DNA of 64,000 bases from a virus (IMGVR_UViG_3300013114_000098); one strand, 5' to 3'. Shown: positions 1 through 54,744, numbered from the stretch's first letter. Notes: a model not told the origin generated them from the letters alone. Numbers and translations are program-made.

Positions 1-3000
1 TTTGACTTAGTAAATTAAATACTTCGTCATTTTTACTATTCATTGCGAGATAAGATAACATTGACACTAACTTAGCCATTGCACCCTGTTCACCTGAGTA
101 TTTAATTGGATCTTCATTGTCAGGATGTTCAGGATCATTTGGATCAATGTTAAGCTGAAAATCTTCCTTGTCTTTAATCATATCGTATACACGATTGATA
201 TTAGTTTTAGTTAGATCTGTCATGCTATCTTTCTCTTTTACAATACGGGCTACTGTTTCTAAGACCGCATCCATATTCGCAGTCTTAAATGTATTGTACA
301 TGAACTTGTCAGTTATGTCAACCGCTTCTTTATCATTTTCTTCTACAATCGCAGTAGATTGAGCCTGATAGGCGTTATAACCTCTAGAAGTTTGTAAACG
401 TTTAACTGTACTCTTAAATTCTTTTAATTTCTCTTTAATAGTTTCAACGATATTTTCATTTCCTTCGTTAACTAATTTGTGTGAACGCACATGTCTCAAA
501 AATTGAGTACATTGCGACACTTCTTCAGATAATTTTATAATTGATTCACCAATTGCATCATATGGTGTCCCACCATGGCTTACATGATTGGCCATAGCTC
601 TTGCACCTTGTAAATATTTAAATGGGAATCTAAATCTTTCACCAGCACTATTTTCTACAAATAATGCTTTAATATTTCTACTTCTTGCACCGCGTTTTTC
701 TTCATTTACAGCCGCTGAGTGCCTAATAATAAGTTTAGTTGCCTCAGGTAATTGTATATAACTTGTCTTAATACTTCCTGTTGCACGTGAATACCCTTCC
801 ATAATTATTTTATGGTTTTTATCATTTTTGTCATGAACATCTGCTACAATAGCATCACCAAATCTAGATAAAACTACTATATCACTTGATTCAACTAGAG
901 TTATTTCACTTGGGTCAAACTCTTCATCTTCTTGTTCTTCTGTTGCACCTTGTACAAGATGACCTGGAACATAACCTGCTCTATCAAGCATATCTTGTGG
1001 AGTATAAGTAACACTACCTTCTCTGTTAATAGTATCAACTGCTTCTTGAGCAAAACCCATATAATCTTCTTCTTGTGAGAAGAACCAACTCATAAAGTCT
1101 TTGAAACTTACTTTTAATTCGCCAGCTTCAGTAACTGTTTCTTCACCATAAAGACCACGCCTCTCATCTCTACGACGCTGTAATTCTTCATATTCTGACT
1201 CGTCTTTGTCTTCTTCGTCATCACCATAAAGACCGTGCTTCACATCTCTACGATGCTGTTCTTTTTCATCTTCGTCTTGTTCTGTTTTATTACTTTCAAA
1301 CATTTTTGAGTAATCTGATGAGTATTCTGCAATATTTTCACCTGGGAATAACACGTTAAATAATGCAGGGTCTTTTGATATTGAAACCTGGAAATAATAT
1401 ATCAAACTATCTCTGTCTTGAGTATCCATATAGTCTGGTTGCATCATATCTACAACATCCATATCGCCAGCATCCATCATATCATCTAGATGATTAACAA
1501 ATTCTTCACCTTCATCTGGATAATCTTCTGGATCATAATCAGTATGTTTTATTATTGCCGCTCTAACATTTTTAATGTGTGGTAAAAGTTGAGCGTGTGT
1601 AACATCATCTCTACCAGCTTCAATAATCTTCTGGCGTTCGCCATCTTTGACTGGCCTTATTTCAAAGGCATTTTCTCTCCATTTACCTGAGTCTCTATAT
1701 TTTTGAACAATTTTCTCTGCATCATCATATGTGACCCATCCTTGATGTACTTTAGCACCAGCAATCCAAACACCGTATTGCTTCTCTTCTTCTACTAACT
1801 TAACACCTGCTAATTCTTTTAATCTTCCAACTGCTTCTTTCATATCATATGCTTCCAAGTGTGCTACACCTGATGCCTGCATACCTTGTTCACTCCATTT
1901 AACATCTCTACCGACAATTTTACTAATACCGGCTTCAAATCCTTTATCTGTATAAATTTCCCAAGGACCATTATGTTCAACGTGTACTTCATACCATCCA
2001 TCATCGTGCTGTTCAACTGTAATATCTCCAACTGTTACATGATCTGCTTCCCACATTTCATCTTCAAGCCAAATACTATCACCTGCTAATTCAACATCTT
2101 TATTTACTTTTATTGTTTTATGGCCTTCGCCTGCTTTTGTATTAAATTCTGTTAATTCTTCTTCTGTTGATTCTGAATTAAAAATATTCTTATCACCTAT
2201 TTCGTTATTAGTTTTGCCATCACGTGGAACTTCAGTAGGTTCACCATCTGGAATTTTACTTACGTCAAACTCACCTGCTGGTGAATCATCACCTCGTTGA
2301 CGTTTAAGATCTGGATCTCTTGGATCCATACGTCTAAACGGATGAGGACCTTGCTCTAGAGCAAAGTCAGGATACATTTCAACTGCTTTAGCATAAATGT
2401 CTGGATGATCATTTTTTAGTTTAGTCTTGTGTTCTGTATTTGCTTCATCAGTTAATCCTGCCATACGAGATTCCATATCGCCTGCCCACATTTCAAGTGA
2501 CCATTGTTCTTTATCTTTATCAAGTTGCGGGTGCATACTTGCAAGACCATATTTTGGAACTGGAGCTGAGCCTTCAATATCTGCACCTTGTGGTGGCATT
2601 TCTGCTTCGTTCCATTCATCATATGTAAGTACTTTGCCTGTATCACCGTCTGAATAGTTTCCTTCTCCTGGATTATAATAAATTACACGACCCGAATGAG
2701 TCGCAATAGGACCATACTGCTTTTTATTTGCTGGATATTTTTTTGGATCTGGCTCTGGCAAACTGCGATCCCAATTTACATTTCGTCTGCTTCGATATTC
2801 AGTAAGTTCTTTTTCTTCGGTTTTAATACCTGATAGTTCTTTTAATCTAGTTATTAATTCACCTTCTTCGTTTACTACATCGTGAGCAAAGTCTTTTGGT
2901 TCAATATTTTTATCAAATTTTCTAATGTTATATTCTGCCATTGCATTATGTCCTGCTTTCTTAATACTATCTAATAAATCTTTATGTTCATTAAAGTTAA

Positions 3001-3193
3001 AACTAGCTCCTGCCTGTACAACTAGTTCAGTTAGATCATCCTCTTCTCTTATTGTAACTAAAAAATCCTTATCGTAAGCATAAAATCTAGCTGAACGCTC
3101 AGGATCTAGTGTTTTGTTTCCTGCTGGATCAAACAATTTTAATTTAATGTTTGCTCCTTTGAGAATGTTAAAAATTTCTTGCGATAGTTGCAT
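1..3193 (-). CDS. Large putative head/virion protein, >1064 aa, runs off the window edge (absent from the ORF track)
   Basis: Manual translation from ATG at 3193 (MQLSQEIFNILKGANIKLKLFD...) showed no stop in the segments read, which extend to base 1. It has an AAGGA RBS and a late promoter upstream. The distal part carries LIIRHS..VNEEKRGARSRNIKALFVENSAGERFRFP...ARAMANHVSHGGTPYD, a block I recognise from jumbo T4-like phages. Confidence 0.85.
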   Translation of the reverse strand, partial: MQLSQEIFNILKGANIKLKLFDPAGNKTLDPERSARFYAYDKDFLVTIREEDDLTELVVQAGASFNFNEHKDLLDSIKKAGHNAMAEYNIRKFDKNIEPKDFAHDVVNEEGELITRLKELSGIKTEEKELTEYRSRRNVNWDRSLPEPDPKKYPANKKQYGPIATHSGRVIYYNPGEGNYSDGDTGKVLTYDEWNEAEMPPQGADIEGSAPVPKYGLASMHPQLDKDKEQWSLEMWAGDMESRMAGLTDEANTEHKTKLKNDHPDIYAKAVEMYPDFALEQGPHPFRRMDPRDPDLKRQRGDDSPAGEFDVSKIPDGEPTEVPRDGKTNNEIGDKNIFNSESTEEELTEFNTKAGEGHKTIKVNKDVELAGDSIWLEDEMWEADHVTVGDITVEQHDDGWYEVHVEHNGPWEIYTDKGFEAGISKIVGRDVKWSEQGMQASGVAHLEAYDMKEAVGRLKELAGVKLVEEEKQYGVWIAGAKVHQGWVTYDDAEKIVQKYRDSGKWRENAFEIRPVKDGERQKIIEAGRDDVTHAQLLPHIKNVRAAIIKHTDYDPEDYPDEGEEFVNHLDDMMDAGDMDVVDMMQPDYMDTQDRDSLIYYFQVSISKDPALFNVLFPGENIAEYSSDYSKMFESNKTEQDEDEKEQHRRDVKHGLYGDDEEDKDESEYEELQRRRDERRGLYGEETVTEAGELKVSFKDFMSWFFSQEEDYMGFAQEAVDTINREGSVTYTPQDMLDRAGYVPGHLVQGATEEQEDEEFDPSEITLVESSDIVVLSRFGDAIVADVHDKNDKNHKIIMEGYSRATGSIKTSYIQLPEATKLIIRHSAAVNEEKRGARSRNIKALFVENSAGERFRFPFKYLQGARAMANHVSHGGTPYDAIGESIIKLSEEVSQCTQFLRHVRSHKLVNEGNENIVETIKEKLKEFKSTVKRLQTSRGYNAYQAQSTAIVEENDKEAVDITDKFMYNTFKTANMDAVLETVARIVKEKDSMTDLTKTNINRVYDMIKDKEDFQLNIDPNDPEHPDNEDPIKYSGEQGAMAKLVSMLSYLAMNSKNDEVFNLLSQ

Positions 3194-3210
3194 TATAGTA
3201 TTCCTTTAAT

Positions 3211-3219
3211 GTATTTATC
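3211..3219 (-). promoter_or_regulatory. T4-type late promoter
   Basis: GATAAATAC, 18 nt upstream of ATG 3193. Confidence 0.75.
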
Positions 3220-3234
3220 AAGATGCATTGAAAA

Positions 3235-3450
3235 TTACTTTCTTTTGAAGCCTTTATACCGCTTATGAAACTGCTCTACACGACCTTCAGTATCCATAAT
3301 TCTAGTTTTACCTGTAAAAAACGGATGACATTTTGAACATACATCTAATTTCATTGTTTCTTTATTAAGAGTTGACCGAGTTTCGAACGTAGCACCGCAT
3401 TGGCATACAACAGCAATGGTCTTGTATTGAGGATGGATATTCTTCTGCAC
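3235..3450 (-). CDS. rpmE: 50S ribosomal protein bL31, Zn-binding (C+) type
   Basis: 71 aa with MQKNIHPQY...CQC...TRST...LDVCSKCHPFFTGK.RIMDTEGRVEQF.KRY; GTG start with GGAG RBS. Confidence 0.96.
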   Translation of the reverse strand: MQKNIHPQYKTIAVVCQCGATFETRSTLNKETMKLDVCSKCHPFFTGKTRIMDTEGRVEQFHKRYKGFKRK

Positions 3451-3471
3451 TCATCTTGTCTCCGATATACA

Positions 3472-3480
3472 CTATTTATT
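3472..3480 (-). promoter_or_regulatory. Late promoter for rpmE
   Basis: AATAAATAG overlapping the terminase stop codon. Confidence 0.7.
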
Positions 3481-5035
3481 ATAATAAACTAAAAGGCATT
3501 GGTTCCATGCCATCGGAATCTTCAAAATCATCATTTAAATAATCAAATGCTTCTTCTTCATATTTAGATACTTCCATACTCATACGTACAATTAAATTAA
3601 CTGCCATTACAAGGTCATCTGTTTCACCAGATTTTGCAGAATAACTATTACCTTTTGCTATAAATGTTTTTAATTCTCTTAATAATGGTTTACTTGCTAC
3701 TTCTAATTTTTCTGTTTCTACCCAATGTTTTAACTTTGCACAAGCAGATATTTTGGCTTTGTGTGTAGTAGTAAACCCTCTTCTATAGCGTTTAGCATTA
3801 CCATGTTGCCTTGTTTCAGTTAAAAATGTTCCTGGAAAATTTTCTTCGCCTTGTTCTTCTACAACAACTAATGCGGCTTCACCTAAGGTATTGTTCTCTA
3901 CACTGTAGTAAATTTCACAATCACCGTTAGATTCAGTATCAATATGTTGTGCTATTTCTCGCAAAATTTTTATCTGTCCTTGTACAGTTGTTCTATTGTG
4001 CATCCATTCTGCTATTTGTTTCATACCTGGCATACTATATACTTGTATAGCACTATTATCTCCACCTGTACCTAAACTAGGATCAAGTCCTATCATATAC
4101 AATTTACCTTTAGCAACTGGCGAATACCAGCGTACCTGTCCAGATATAGCGTATGGATCACGTGCTTTCATATTAGCAAGTTTAATACTATCAATTAATG
4201 TTTCATCATACGCAATAAATTCACATTTATGTTCACGTCTAAATCTTTCTTCACCTATTTTACCATATTCAAGATCTGCCCATTCTTGATCTCTTTCTGG
4301 ATGTCTTTCCCATGTAGCTAGATAATGTGCAAATCCATTTACGCCAGTATCTGTTTCAATACCATATTCATCAATGTTTTTATTCGCATCTCGCCAAATT
4401 TGTGCAAACTGATCATCATCCATATTAGGTGTGCTTGTAATAATACATTTACCACCTGTTGCTAATGTGGGAGACAGTGAAGTCCAAAATTCTTTTGCTA
4501 CATTTGGACGGACAAATGCAAACTCGTCTAAATATGCTAATGAGATACTTAAACCTCTTCCTGTATTTTCTGTTGTACTTTGTGCAATAATACGTGAACC
4601 ATTATCAAACTCTAAACTACCTTTGTTGTATGCTGTTACACCAGCACGTATATAATCTGGTAATGTTTCGTATGAGAATCGTACACGTTGCATAATTTCT
4701 GATGCACCTGCATATTTGTGTGCCGCTACTAATATAGTTTGATCTGGATTAAACATTGCATACCATAGCAAATATCCTGCCGCACAAGTTGACTTACCCA
4801 TTTGTCGTGCCAGCATATTAATACTGTATCTATTGTTGTGATATACGTCAACTAATTCGTCTTGAAAGTCATATAAATCAAATCTTAACCTGCCTTTTAC
4901 AGGATGTTGAATATAACAATGCTTACTCATAAAGTATTTGGGATCATCTGCACATCTAGCAAGTTCTAAAAGTTGCTCTTCTGTGTACTTTTCTCTTCTA
5001 TACGGAGTTTTTGTTAATTTAGTATCTACTGACAT
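3479..5035 (-). CDS. gp17: Terminase large subunit
   Basis: ARQMGKST Walker A, YLDEFAF Walker B, ITSTPN, GLDPSLGTGGD nuclease motif, DDLVMA. Start placed at MSVDTK (TAATG overlap with the upstream stop). Confidence 0.96.
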   Translation of the reverse strand: MSVDTKLTKTPYRREKYTEEQLLELARCADDPKYFMSKHCYIQHPVKGRLRFDLYDFQDELVDVYHNNRYSINMLARQMGKSTCAAGYLLWYAMFNPDQTILVAAHKYAGASEIMQRVRFSYETLPDYIRAGVTAYNKGSLEFDNGSRIIAQSTTENTGRGLSISLAYLDEFAFVRPNVAKEFWTSLSPTLATGGKCIITSTPNMDDDQFAQIWRDANKNIDEYGIETDTGVNGFAHYLATWERHPERDQEWADLEYGKIGEERFRREHKCEFIAYDETLIDSIKLANMKARDPYAISGQVRWYSPVAKGKLYMIGLDPSLGTGGDNSAIQVYSMPGMKQIAEWMHNRTTVQGQIKILREIAQHIDTESNGDCEIYYSVENNTLGEAALVVVEEQGEENFPGTFLTETRQHGNAKRYRRGFTTTHKAKISACAKLKHWVETEKLEVASKPLLRELKTFIAKGNSYSAKSGETDDLVMAVNLIVRMSMEVSKYEEEAFDYLNDDFEDSDGMEPMPFSLL

Positions 5036-5730
5036 TAATATCTCCCAAACGCCCATTCACGTTCTTTACACCACCAACATTTTTTACAATGTGTAACCAT
5101 TTTATCAGGTTGATCTGTATTTTCTTCAGCATGTTGTTCACAACTTCTTGTATATGGAAATAATTCTTCTATCATATTAAAATGCTCATATAAATGTGCT
5201 ACCATACGTTTATCAACTGCCATAAGTGGCGTCCAACGTGTAATTCCTGGTACATATTCCTTTAATATAAGTCTACCATGTCCTGGATCACGTGGTTTAT
5301 GTCTATTATTTATAGTATCAAACTTAACATCTAACGGAGGATTTTGTGTAGTACCATGTAATGTAAAGGTTATACCATGCAAATCTTGTTGCATTTTTTC
5401 TGTATCATCAAGTTCTGATCTAATTTGATCGGTACTATAAAATGTATAATGACTTTTAATTAGTTTTGTTCCTGTGAGCTGGAGTACTCTATTAAGTACT
5501 CTAGTACTCCAGTTAGCGTTATACCACCCCTTAATAGGGTTAGCAGACGTTATAACATGCAGTTCTGCCTCTGGTATATATTGCTCACAGTATTGGATTA
5601 GCATCAATAATAATATGGCACTATCTGCACCACCTGAGATGTTAATACAAATCTTGTTATGAGGCTTTGGTACTGTAAATTCTATATTCTGACCGAAATT
5701 ATCCGTATATGTTTCAATAGGCCTTTTCAT
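5035..5730 (-). CDS. QueC-like PP-loop ATP pyrophosphatase
   Basis: SGGADS PP-loop; TRSC...HCKKCWWCKER Zn motif. Confidence 0.75.
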   Translation of the reverse strand: MKRPIETYTDNFGQNIEFTVPKPHNKICINISGGADSAILLLMLIQYCEQYIPEAELHVITSANPIKGWYNANWSTRVLNRVLQLTGTKLIKSHYTFYSTDQIRSELDDTEKMQQDLHGITFTLHGTTQNPPLDVKFDTINNRHKPRDPGHGRLILKEYVPGITRWTPLMAVDKRMVAHLYEHFNMIEELFPYTRSCEQHAEENTDQPDKMVTHCKKCWWCKEREWAFGRY

Positions 5731-5735
5731 ATTAC

Positions 5736-5743
5736 TATTTATA
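5736..5743 (-). promoter_or_regulatory. Late promoter TATAAATA, likely leaderless transcript
   Basis: Exact T4 consensus, 5 nt before ATG 5730, no RBS. Confidence 0.75.
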
Positions 5744-5747
5744 AAGA

Positions 5748-5780
5748 AAAACGGCGTAGTTAATTAAAACCACACCGTTT
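5748..5780 (-). terminator. Putative intrinsic terminator
   Basis: Imperfect inverted repeat aaacggcgtagtt...aaccacaccgttt with a T-run on the minus strand. Confidence 0.45.
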
Positions 5781-14739: not shown

Positions 14740-15381
14740 TTATCTGACTATTTTGTCTAGGGTATGTTTTCTGAGTTCTTCAAGTGTAGATGTGTTTAAA
14801 AGTTCAATATCAAATTTCCAGCCTGCCCAACTCCATTCACTTTTGTGTACTTCTGGATGTCTAGCCTTCATTCCATCTACAATATGCATTGGCTTTTTTG
14901 AAACTTTTGCTTCATTAAGAATAGATGCGTTGTTCCACCATTCTGGTTTATCATATCGCCATACAACTGCTGTTTTTCCGCCGAGATTTTTAATAGCTTG
15001 AAGTTCATTAAAAAATCTGCAATCACTTATAACAACACTTTTTTCTGTACTTACAATTTGACGTTCACAAGCGGCAACCCATATATCAGGATGAAAGTGC
15101 GTTCTTAATGCATCTGTACCTACTTGTTGTAATGCAAGACGTGGAGTAAAATTTGGAATTTTTAAACGAGTGGCCCACCATTCATCAACTGTTTCTCTCC
15201 ATACTCTGCCTTCTGCGGTGTTGCCTTCTAATAGTATTCTATCCCATCCAAATATATTAGCACATGCATCTTTTAATACACCTGCAAAACTAACTCTTTC
15301 AAATCCTTCTTCAATTAAGAATCCTGCCGCTGTATCTTTTCCGTGCCCTATAAGTCCACATATACCAATTATTTGTTTCAT
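14740..15381 (-). CDS. gp1: Deoxynucleoside monophosphate kinase
   Basis: IIGICGLIGHGKDT, SFA..LKD, TPRLALQQVGTD, VISDCRF.NE, H.SE. Confidence 0.92.
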   Translation of the reverse strand: MKQIIGICGLIGHGKDTAAGFLIEEGFERVSFAGVLKDACANIFGWDRILLEGNTAEGRVWRETVDEWWATRLKIPNFTPRLALQQVGTDALRTHFHPDIWVAACERQIVSTEKSVVISDCRFFNELQAIKNLGGKTAVVWRYDKPEWWNNASILNEAKVSKKPMHIVDGMKARHPEVHKSEWSWAGWKFDIELLNTSTLEELRKHTLDKIVR

Positions 15382-53826: not shown

Positions 53827-54744
53827 TTACTCTCCTGTTTCTTCAGTTTCTTCGTCGGGAATTTCGTATGTTGTTACTTTTAACGTAGGATTTTCTAGTT
53901 TCTTTTTTTCTTCACTTCTAAGATGAGCTTCCCATTCTGCATTAAATGTTCTAGTGCTACTTGGATTTAGCCCTTCTTCTTCTAGTAAGTCATCTCTAAT
54001 ATTTTGACTACGTTTTTCTAAGTTTAAAACTCTTGTAAAACTATTATTAATTGCCGCAGTATAATAAGCAAATGGGTTTTGACTCTTAAGTTCATTAAAT
54101 TGTAAGCCAATTTGTGCAAGTTGTAACAACGCCTGCCCACGCATCTCATCTACATATGTGTATCCACGCCAGTTACCTCGCATACTATAACGTTCGCATA
54201 GTTTAATATACATTTTTGCTAAAGAATCTGTTGTTTGTCCATGATGAACATTAAAATGACCGTTATCTTTTCCACCTTCCCAATGGCTTCTAACTACTTC
54301 ATTCCATTTGCCATTCTGCATTGCATAATGTTTAAATGGAGGAAAATTACATTTACTATGTAAATCTGCTTCTGATTTTGGTTTATTTTTTCTATTTTCT
54401 TCTGGTATATGATCAAATGTCATTACACGTACTACAATGTCATCATCTTTAATAGTATCAATATCAACTGCAAAATCTGCAGCTCTTGGTTTAGTTTTCT
54501 TTCCTGTTAAACCTTGCTCCCATCGTCCTACTTCAACTTGGTGTGCTAACTTTTGTAATCTTGTTGCTCTGTTTTGTTTTGCTTCTGCAATTGCTTCTTT
54601 TGTTATTTCTTCAAATCCGGTTACAATAAGATCAAAATGTGTATAATTATCATCTTTAGTCCAACAATACGTCATTTTACTATTATGTATTTCTCTTAAC
54701 AAATCTTTATTTGTTAAGTAAAAAGTTTTCTTTTTGGTTGTCAT
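53827..54744 (-). CDS. gp55: Late transcription sigma factor
   Basis: NWRGYTYVDEM...FNELKSQNPFAYYT...NSF; consistent with the TAAATA promoters. Confidence 0.85.
   Translation of the reverse strand: MTTKKKTFYLTNKDLLREIHNSKMTYCWTKDDNYTHFDLIVTGFEEITKEAIAEAKQNRATRLQKLAHQVEVGRWEQGLTGKKTKPRAADFAVDIDTIKDDDIVVRVMTFDHIPEENRKNKPKSEADLHSKCNFPPFKHYAMQNGKWNEVVRSHWEGGKDNGHFNVHHGQTTDSLAKMYIKLCERYSMRGNWRGYTYVDEMRGQALLQLAQIGLQFNELKSQNPFAYYTAAINNSFTRVLNLEKRSQNIRDDLLEEEGLNPSSTRTFNAEWEAHLRSEEKKKLENPTLKVTTYEIPDEETEETGE

Follow-up and report, generated by a model that had tools for sequence, protein, structure and literature searches.

A probable accessory cassette for zinc-type ribosomal protein bL31 beside the terminase gene of an uncultured marine jumbo phage

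Introduction

Why a phage should keep a gene for a ribosomal protein of the cell among the genes for its own virion is the question raised by a locus in the window, by which we mean the whole stretch of 64,000 nucleotides analysed in the present study. A first-pass annotation had read this locus as a bL31 gene that is placed next to the terminase gene and wired into the late programme of the phage. In the ribosome, the N-terminal domain of bL31 lies on the central protuberance, while its C-terminal part reaches the 30S head (bridge B1b). Viral ribosomal protein genes blur the line between viruses and cells, and the answer matters in either direction: if the phage bL31 enters host ribosomes, phages tune the bridging of the subunits in the late phase and not only initiation, as with bS21, and if it stays out of ribosomes, the family has another role. 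The locus represents a clean and minimal test case for this question because it is a cassette of 255 nt, the insertion of which is datable against sister phages that have no bL31, and because it combines a predicted late promoter with conserved differences in the subunit-bridging part of the protein.

Viral bL31 has been described before. Mizuno et al. (2019; Nat Commun 10:752; PMC6375957) reported it in 15 aquatic contigs, all of them environmental and none from an isolate, and found at least two acquisitions and a pN/pS of 0.14. Their contig counts (1310 for bS21, 30 for bL12, and 15 for bL31) agree with the first-pass statement that bS21 and bL12 are the common viral ribosomal proteins and bL31 a rarer one. 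The same authors placed bL31 among the loosely bound, exchangeable ribosomal proteins, and proposed that viral bL31 and HPF homologues might prevent the formation of ribosome dimers. Chen et al. (2022; PMC9723584) studied huge Bacteroidetes phages in which a bS21 gene lies in the terminase/capsid module and is transcribed with the late genes. In terms of bL31 itself, a protein that is intact down to its C-terminal 8 residues favours translation and the association of the subunits (PMC9966373), and the two paralogues of E. coli are not equivalent with respect to fitness in the cold, processivity, and the maintenance of the frame (PMC7363858). The locus in the window confirms and refines this known phenomenon and is not a new kind of system. 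Beyond the findings of Mizuno et al., it adds the jumbo-phage lineage, the exact cassette adjacent to the large terminase gene and its narrow spread, noting that their 15 contigs may include the present clade; a late-type promoter, mosaic alleles, and clade-specific residues in the linker and tail of the protein are also new.

Results and Discussion

An intact zinc-type bL31 gene

The coding sequence (rpmE-like, zinc-type A) occupies positions 3235-3450 on the minus strand, and comprises 216 nt for 71 aa with a GTG start and a TAA stop. The GTG is directly preceded in frame by TGA and is, thus, the only start that yields full-length bL31; a longer form is impossible. The predicted protein matched PF01197 (Ribosomal_L31) over its full length (E 1e-31, with 109 bits where the cut-off is 27), TIGR00105 (E 8e-33, 112 bits against 38), and NF000612 (E of about 1e-32, 112 bits against 70). 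The model of the cysteine-less type-B paralogue, NF002462, gave 65 bits, which is under its cut-off of 86, and the protein in the window is only 71 aa long. The zinc ligands C16, C18, C38, and C41 as well as H42 and P43 were invariant in 65 aligned sequences, which include the viral clade described below and 45 bacterial homologues. These scores above the Pfam and NCBIfam cut-offs, together with the invariant cysteines, bear out the first-pass call of an intact four-cysteine gene. The CHPFFTG motif is present, with F44 being invariant in the viral clade and found in more than 90% of the sequences overall, and the N-terminal IHP motif and full-length basic tail have also been kept.

Residues 1-70 aligned without gaps to the bL31 chains of solved ribosomes, and the best-scoring structures included that of Acinetobacter. 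The AlphaFold2 model had a pLDDT of 69, a moderate confidence that is expected for a protein extended on the ribosome. Its N-terminal domain superposed on the solved chains with a TM of 0.7-0.77 and an rmsd of approximately 3 Å, and all PDB matches listed by Foldseek with E <0.001 were bL31 chains from ribosome structures. The bacterial type A proteins (RpmE of E. coli, Acinetobacter baumannii [6ysi], and Thermus) are approximately 50-58% identical to the phage protein, and resemble it in length, the four-cysteine zinc knuckle, the CHPFFTG motif, the basic C-terminal tail, and the superposition of the N-terminal domain. In contrast to them, the present gene is encoded by a phage, starts with GTG, and has no rpmE leader RNA: an Rfam scan of positions 3100-3800 gave nothing near the gathering score, and the known rpmE leader was not found there. 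No PHROGs family matched the protein. When identity and architecture are considered jointly, it is very probable that 3235-3450 is a genuine and intact zinc-type bL31 gene carried by a phage.

The phage and the genes surrounding bL31

The window is part of a 123,388-bp viral record in IMG/VR that was estimated by CheckV to be 34% complete, which corresponds to a phage of approximately 360 kb. The gene for the large terminase subunit (TerL; 525 aa, 3479-5056, minus strand; PF03237 and PF17289) precedes bL31 with a gap of 28 nt between its stop and bL31. On the other side, a gap of 41 nt separates bL31 from the gene for a large structural protein (positions 1-3193, minus strand), which runs off the start of the window and encodes 1118 aa in the full contig. 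The first-pass annotation had placed bL31 between TerL and a head gene; the TerL side of this description holds, whereas the downstream gene matched a PHROG family with the broader label "virion structural protein", of which a head protein would be one possible case. This structural protein ranges from about 420 to 1118 aa among relatives, with conserved N- and C-terminal parts and a variable middle, and residues 470-632 of the copy in the window have no counterpart in that of one relative (L003:7342-10308).

The best match of TerL among cultured phages was at 53% identity to the group of the Pseudomonas jumbo phage PA5oct, followed by Atu_ph07, a Vibrio jumbo phage, and Rak2-like phages. Genes for a tail tube, sheath, head-tail adaptor, portal, major head protein, and tail fibres surround bL31 on the contig. 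The hallmark genes for TerL, the portal, major head protein, sheath, tube, and a late sigma factor share the contig of bL31, which, thus, represents a bona fide viral genome. No bS21, bL33, or tRNA was found in the 123-kb contig. The source is an uncultured marine jumbo myophage of an abundant group with a TerL related to those of PA5oct, Rak2, and Atu_ph07. The sequence of the window differs from the genome record by seven single bases (9347, 10495, 34099, 48508, 52423, 52445, and 52471), none of which is near bL31.

Insertion of the cassette downstream of TerL

The history of the locus was traced in TerL relatives from IMG/VR, of which we fetched 80 out of at least 595 that matched, with TerL identities of 65-97%, and searched each locus for bL31. 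The gene was present in 4 of the 80 loci, always approximately 30 nt after TerL and always with a TerL that was at least 92% identical. A fifth bL31-bearing locus, L003 (TerL 95%), was found separately, and one partial locus at 91.8% had no bL31. The same junction between TerL and bL31 was detected in five other IMG/VR contigs (L002/L095, L003, and L096-L098) from five different metagenome datasets. This recurrence rules out an assembly chimera, the objection that the first-pass annotation had itself raised, alongside its call for a comparison of synteny in relatives.

We inspected 18 junctions that have no bL31. In 16 of them, a late-type promoter (GATAAATAC or a variant close to it) comes within 10-40 nt after the TerL stop and leads into the structural gene; the other two (L173 and L161) carry a different, unrelated insert of 344 aa. 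Alignment of the window to bL31-less relatives delimited an inserted cassette of approximately 255 nt, which contains the promoter, the leader with its ribosome binding site (RBS), and bL31, and extends from about 3222 to 3475 on the minus strand. Ten larger relatives (75-205 kb) gave no PF01197 match in the DNA searched. We conclude from this distribution that bL31 is a lineage-specific accessory cassette, which is confined to a young sub-lineage and does not belong to the core genes of the group.

The position after bL31 is also variable. A further gene occupies this slot in L002 (247 aa), L003 (359 aa), and L096-L098 (341-350 aa), while the window carries none, and the slot genes of L002 and L003 show no relationship with one another or with anything in the contig of the window. 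The slot just downstream of TerL is, thus, an insertion hot spot. The genes found in it among relatives (247-359 aa) belong to no Pfam family, and are located at L002:6226-6969, L003:6216-7295, L096:4818-5870, L173:1138-2172, and L161:4591-5625.

Comparative genomics of lambdoid phages has defined morons as autonomously expressed accessory genes inserted between phage late genes. The bL31 cassette resembles them in that it brings one accessory gene, together with a promoter for it, into the space between two genes that adjoin each other in relatives, in its slightly atypical composition, and in its location in a variable hot spot. It differs from morons in having no terminator of its own and in using a promoter of the phage late class instead of a host-type promoter that is active in lysogens; moreover, the phage carrying it is presumably virulent.

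The viral clade and its possible donor

The bL31 protein in the window belongs to a tight clade of metagenomic sequences with identities of 66-86% that form 16 clusters at 90% identity. This distinct viral clade contains 19 distinct sequences, namely, the window, three loci, and 15 protein clusters. Outside it, the best bacterial identities seen fall to 63-68%, and are shared by bacteria of many phyla; among GTDB genomes at one per species, the best match (63%) was a gammaproteobacterial metagenome-assembled genome (MAG) with a similar tail. An all-against-all search of representatives found no relatives closer than those already in hand. In a tree of 175 sequences, which is weak with 74 columns, the viral clade formed one side of a branch (SH-aLRT 71) and fell into a group together with Gammaproteobacteria and Actinomycetota (support 84); a single gammaproteobacterial MAG was placed close to it (80). 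Phylogeny against bacterial bL31, which had been suggested as a route to the host, accordingly recovered the viral clade as a branch, but its support on 74 columns is too weak to name a donor. A loop that is longer by two residues, which the viral protein shares with some Gammaproteobacteria, was considered as a marker of Gammaproteobacteria and rejected because it also occurs in Actinomycetota, Clostridia, and Acidobacteriota. Taken together, these data provide weak hints of Gammaproteobacteria as a possible donor.

Table 2 of PMC3087516 gives L31 without the cysteines for Alphaproteobacteria, Bacteroidetes, and Verrucomicrobia, while Gamma- and Betaproteobacteria as well as Cyanobacteria have a mixed entry. 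The first-pass remark that alphaproteobacterial L31 typically lacks the cysteines agrees with this table and extends to Bacteroidetes. The zinc form, therefore, fits a donor outside both Alphaproteobacteria and Bacteroidetes, and speaks to the donor without being proof of the host.

Selection and probable allele turnover

Pairwise dN/dS values were 0.12-0.24 for bL31 and 0.10-0.12 for TerL; bL31 is under purifying selection in the viral population. Its alleles are at the same time unusually divergent. Between the window and L002, 26 of 216 nt differed in bL31 and 51 of 1578 in TerL (Fisher P 3e-7), and the corresponding dS values were 0.44 and 0.12, such that the bL31 locus is 3-4 times more divergent than TerL; in L096-L098, TerL is 92% identical and bL31 only 70%. 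The differences are clustered, with the window being nearest to L002 in the 5' half of bL31 and to L003 in the 3' half. In contrast to the coding sequence, the 39 nt that contain the promoter, RBS, and start show no difference between the window, L002, and L003. The leaders of L096-L098 show a 1-nt deletion and a few substitutions, and the late motif is conserved in L002, L003, and L096-L098. The promoter, RBS, and start codon have, thus, been conserved across alleles that differ by 30% in protein sequence. This pattern suggests that bL31 alleles have been replaced by recombination among related phages, which would give rise to mosaic genes through allele swapping. The codon usage of bL31 is mildly atypical: its GC3 is 0.306, while 70-codon windows taken from other genes have 0.195 (P of about 0.04), and its codon-adaptation rank is the third lowest of 117. 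This mild deviation fits an old foreign origin that has been largely ameliorated.

The same codon usage and the confinement of bL31 to a narrow sub-lineage may also be expected of a neutral passenger, i.e., a recent capture of host DNA, or of a mis-assembly. This explanation is largely refuted and can hardly be maintained, considering the recurrence of the junction in five other contigs, the 19 distinct sequences of a clade that is only 63-68% identical to its best bacterial matches, the low dN/dS, and the retention of the promoter, RBS, and start by strongly divergent alleles; furthermore, no host DNA flanks the gene.

A late-type promoter within a predicted late operon

In T4, host-type promoters are used early, and TATAAATA-type promoters are then read through gp55 in the late phase. 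Upstream of bL31, a T4-type late-promoter-like sequence, ATAAATAG, is located at 3472-3479 on the minus strand and starts on the final A of the stop codon of TerL. It is followed by a 5' leader of 21 nt (3451-3471, minus strand) with the RBS GGAGA at 3459-3463, 8 nt before the GTG. The first-pass annotation had assigned the gene its own promoter on the basis of the hexamer TAAATA, which occurs 162 times in the contig with 33 copies upstream of genes; it forms part of ATAAATAG and is weak alone. The extended word ATAAATA[CG] is far more informative: it has 28 copies on both strands of the contig, 21 of which lie within 60 nt upstream of same-strand starts, a zone that covers 2.9% of positions. 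In an unbiased count, no other 7-mer was as strongly enriched in the zones upstream of genes as ATAAATA (23 of 44 copies, P 3e-25), which surpassed even the Shine-Dalgarno words. The modal spacing of ATAAATA[CG] to the start is 17-24 nt, and the copy of bL31 ends 21 nt before the GTG. The word precedes the genes for the tube, sheath, adaptor, portal, fibres, and virion proteins, and AATAAATA-G agrees with the T4 late consensus at seven of eight positions. In summary, the extended word and GGAGA uphold the assignment of a promoter and an RBS to bL31, while the hexamer by itself is uninformative.

A gene for a gp55-like late-transcription sigma factor is present at 53827-54744 on the minus strand (phrog_12791, 3.5e-91; phrog_234, 2.7e-21). 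The host-type promoter TTGACA-N17-TATAAT precedes this gene, a dNMP kinase gene (14740-15381), and a few small genes. The paper on PA5oct reported only host-type promoter motifs, and so it does not serve as an experimental anchor for the late word. On the evidence of motif, spacing, and company, the bL31 copy is to be regarded as a predicted member of the late-type promoter class of the contig, and bL31 is most likely transcribed late. The two promoter classes in the contig constitute a T4-like early/late grammar in an uncultured jumbo phage.

Regarding the claim that the promoter is dedicated to bL31, the late-type motif is indeed there, but no terminator-like hairpin was found from 3235 up to the following gene. 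The word "dedicated", thus, applies only if it is taken to mean an additional promoter that is internal to a late operon. The downstream structural gene has its own late-promoter-like sequence, ATAAATAC, at 3211-3218 on the minus strand, which in bL31-less relatives directly follows TerL. Further upstream, a terminator-like hairpin (5749-5780) is followed by another ATAAATAG (5735-5742) ahead of a QueC-like gene, and this minus-strand region (5735-5780) is the likely predicted start of a transcription unit that leads from the QueC-like gene through TerL to bL31. The QueC-like gene is an ORF of 231 aa (5035-5730, minus strand) that overlaps the start of TerL by 22 nt. QueC (PF06508, 4.8e-5) is matched by only approximately 60 of its C-terminal residues, and the late-type motif lies just 4 nt before its annotated ATG, such that either the annotated start or the presumed structure of the transcript may be wrong.

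The same bL31 clade has a second genomic context, which may represent another position in related phages or a second copy, among genes for radical-SAM/SPASM, NifU_N, IscA-like Fe-S, PanD (aspartate decarboxylase), and carbamoyltransferase proteins. The bL31 loci in this context (5995-6213 in L004/L005, 8001-8216 in L090, and 1194-1409 in L094) use TTG or ATG as the start codon and have no late motif directly upstream, and, thus, not every member of the clade is wired in this manner. Comparison of the fragments that represent these contigs (L004/L005 and L090-L093) with the phage of the window revealed no genes in common, and the carbamoyltransferases of a relative with a 66% identical TerL are only 42-45% identical to those in the second context. 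The use of ATAAATA[CG] elsewhere in these contigs and a similar G+C content are the sole signs that they are related to the phage of the window.

Late synthesis within the virion module raises the possibility that bL31 has an extraribosomal role as a small zinc- or RNA-binding protein, e.g., as a buffer or donor of zinc for phage zinc proteins, a translational regulator of phage mRNAs, or a protein packaged in the virion for the next cell. Phage proteins that are made late and used early are often packaged, and the bL31 gene sits inside the virion module, points in the same direction, and has a late-type promoter in front of it. RNA binding also has a precedent in E. coli bL31, which binds its own mRNA leader (PMC7297116). 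On the other hand, all of the hallmarks of bL31 have been retained (IHP, CHPFFTG, and the full basic tail), which corresponds to the needs of ribosome binding and is more than zinc binding requires, and the region scanned with Rfam lacks the known rpmE leader RNA. We regard an extraribosomal role as very unlikely.

Proposed exchange into host ribosomes

The reading that we prefer is that the phage bL31 is incorporated into host ribosomes as an auxiliary ribosomal protein that sustains late translation, which the sequence data make probable, if by no means certain. A cassette of approximately 255 nt (ATAAATAG, GGAGA, GTG, and the zinc-type bL31 gene) entered the genome in a single young sub-lineage, where it separates the stop codon of TerL from the late promoter that precedes the next structural gene. 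It would be transcribed late, alongside the virion genes, by host RNA polymerase with the phage gp55-like sigma factor. The product would then swap into the host 70S ribosome at the bL31 site (central protuberance, bridge B1b), and subunit association, processivity, and the maintenance of the reading frame would be kept high during the mass production of virion proteins. Considering the conservation of the hallmark residues, purifying selection, and the late-class wiring, ribosome exchange is the best-supported mechanism.

Phage bS21, for which RNA support is available (PMC9723584), offers a parallel for the late exchange of ribosomal proteins. Both are genes for small exchangeable ribosomal proteins in the late structural/packaging module of a large phage, and bS21 was argued to act during late, high-output translation. 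They differ in that bS21 belongs to the 30S platform, acts in initiation, lies on the strand opposite to its neighbours, and has metatranscriptomic support, whereas bL31 points in the same direction as its neighbours, lies behind an identifiable late-promoter word, and is known here from sequence alone.

The residues that set the viral clade apart bear on what an exchanged bL31 might do. At residue 49, the viral clade has S or T, while 94% of the bacteria sampled, a set that was chosen by similarity and is taxonomically uneven, have Q; residue 51 is V, and the tail KGFKRK (K66-G67-F68-x-R70; YKGFKRK with the preceding residue) is nearly invariant in the clade. The linker of the phage protein reads QSR or KTR, as opposed to the near-universal KQK of bacterial bL31. 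Viral bL31, thus, differs systematically from the sampled bacterial proteins in the linker that spans the interface and in the C-terminal tail, and may not be a like-for-like replacement.

These clade-conserved substitutions (S/T49, V51, and K66-G67-F68-x-R70), which fall exactly in the linker and tail, are what would be expected if the phage protein was a modulator and not a spare part, displacing host bL31 and thereby changing bridge B1b, or, in a variant, displacing the zinc-free paralogue bL31B in zinc-starved marine hosts. Possible effects include a block of 100S hibernation or of defence-induced shutdown, or the tuning of frameshifting, such that ribosomes stay active for phage messages. 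The proposal of Mizuno et al. that viral bL31 and HPF homologues might prevent ribosome dimers (PMC6375957) points in the same direction, as do the importance of the C-terminal 8 residues for subunit association (PMC9966373), the differences between bL31A and bL31B in fidelity and processivity (PMC7363858), and the elevated divergence and mosaic alleles, which are expected under shifting selection. However, dN/dS was low and similar to that of TerL, with no positive selection being seen at this resolution, the differences could be neutral lineage signatures from an unsampled donor, and the bacterial set is the uneven one described above. We consider modulation, the foremost rival to simple replacement, to be rather doubtful.

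A bolder form of the idea, which we put forward as a speculation and rate as unlikely, is that viral bL31 provides an engineered bridge B1b for phage-specialised ribosomes, with its alleles being shuffled between co-infecting jumbo phages. The linker residues S/T49 and V51 and the tail KGFKRK would then confer resistance to hibernation or shutdown, or override slow zinc-free bL31B in zinc-starved ocean hosts, and the shuffling would take place in a recombination hot spot flanked by the conserved promoter and leader on one side and conserved tail codons on the other.

Incorporation as an auxiliary ribosomal protein is also the reading that is closest to the earlier survey. The viral bL31 of Mizuno et al. 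(2019) and that of the window are both PF01197 proteins on environmental viral contigs and not in cultured isolates; both are under purifying selection (pN/pS 0.14 and dN/dS 0.12-0.24, respectively), and a replacement of the exchangeable host protein has been proposed for both. A tblastn search of bL31 against 50,697 cultured-phage records returned 23 matches, which were rejected as short unannotated fragments named "Bacteriophage sp.", Salmonella chromosomal contigs, and contigs of "Acinetobacter phage MD-2021a". Among them, the records that look bacterial include Salmonella enterica contigs with a length of approximately 160 kb; the contigs of "Acinetobacter phage MD-2021a", which measure 90-220 kb and harbour rpmE together with rpmE2, also belong here.
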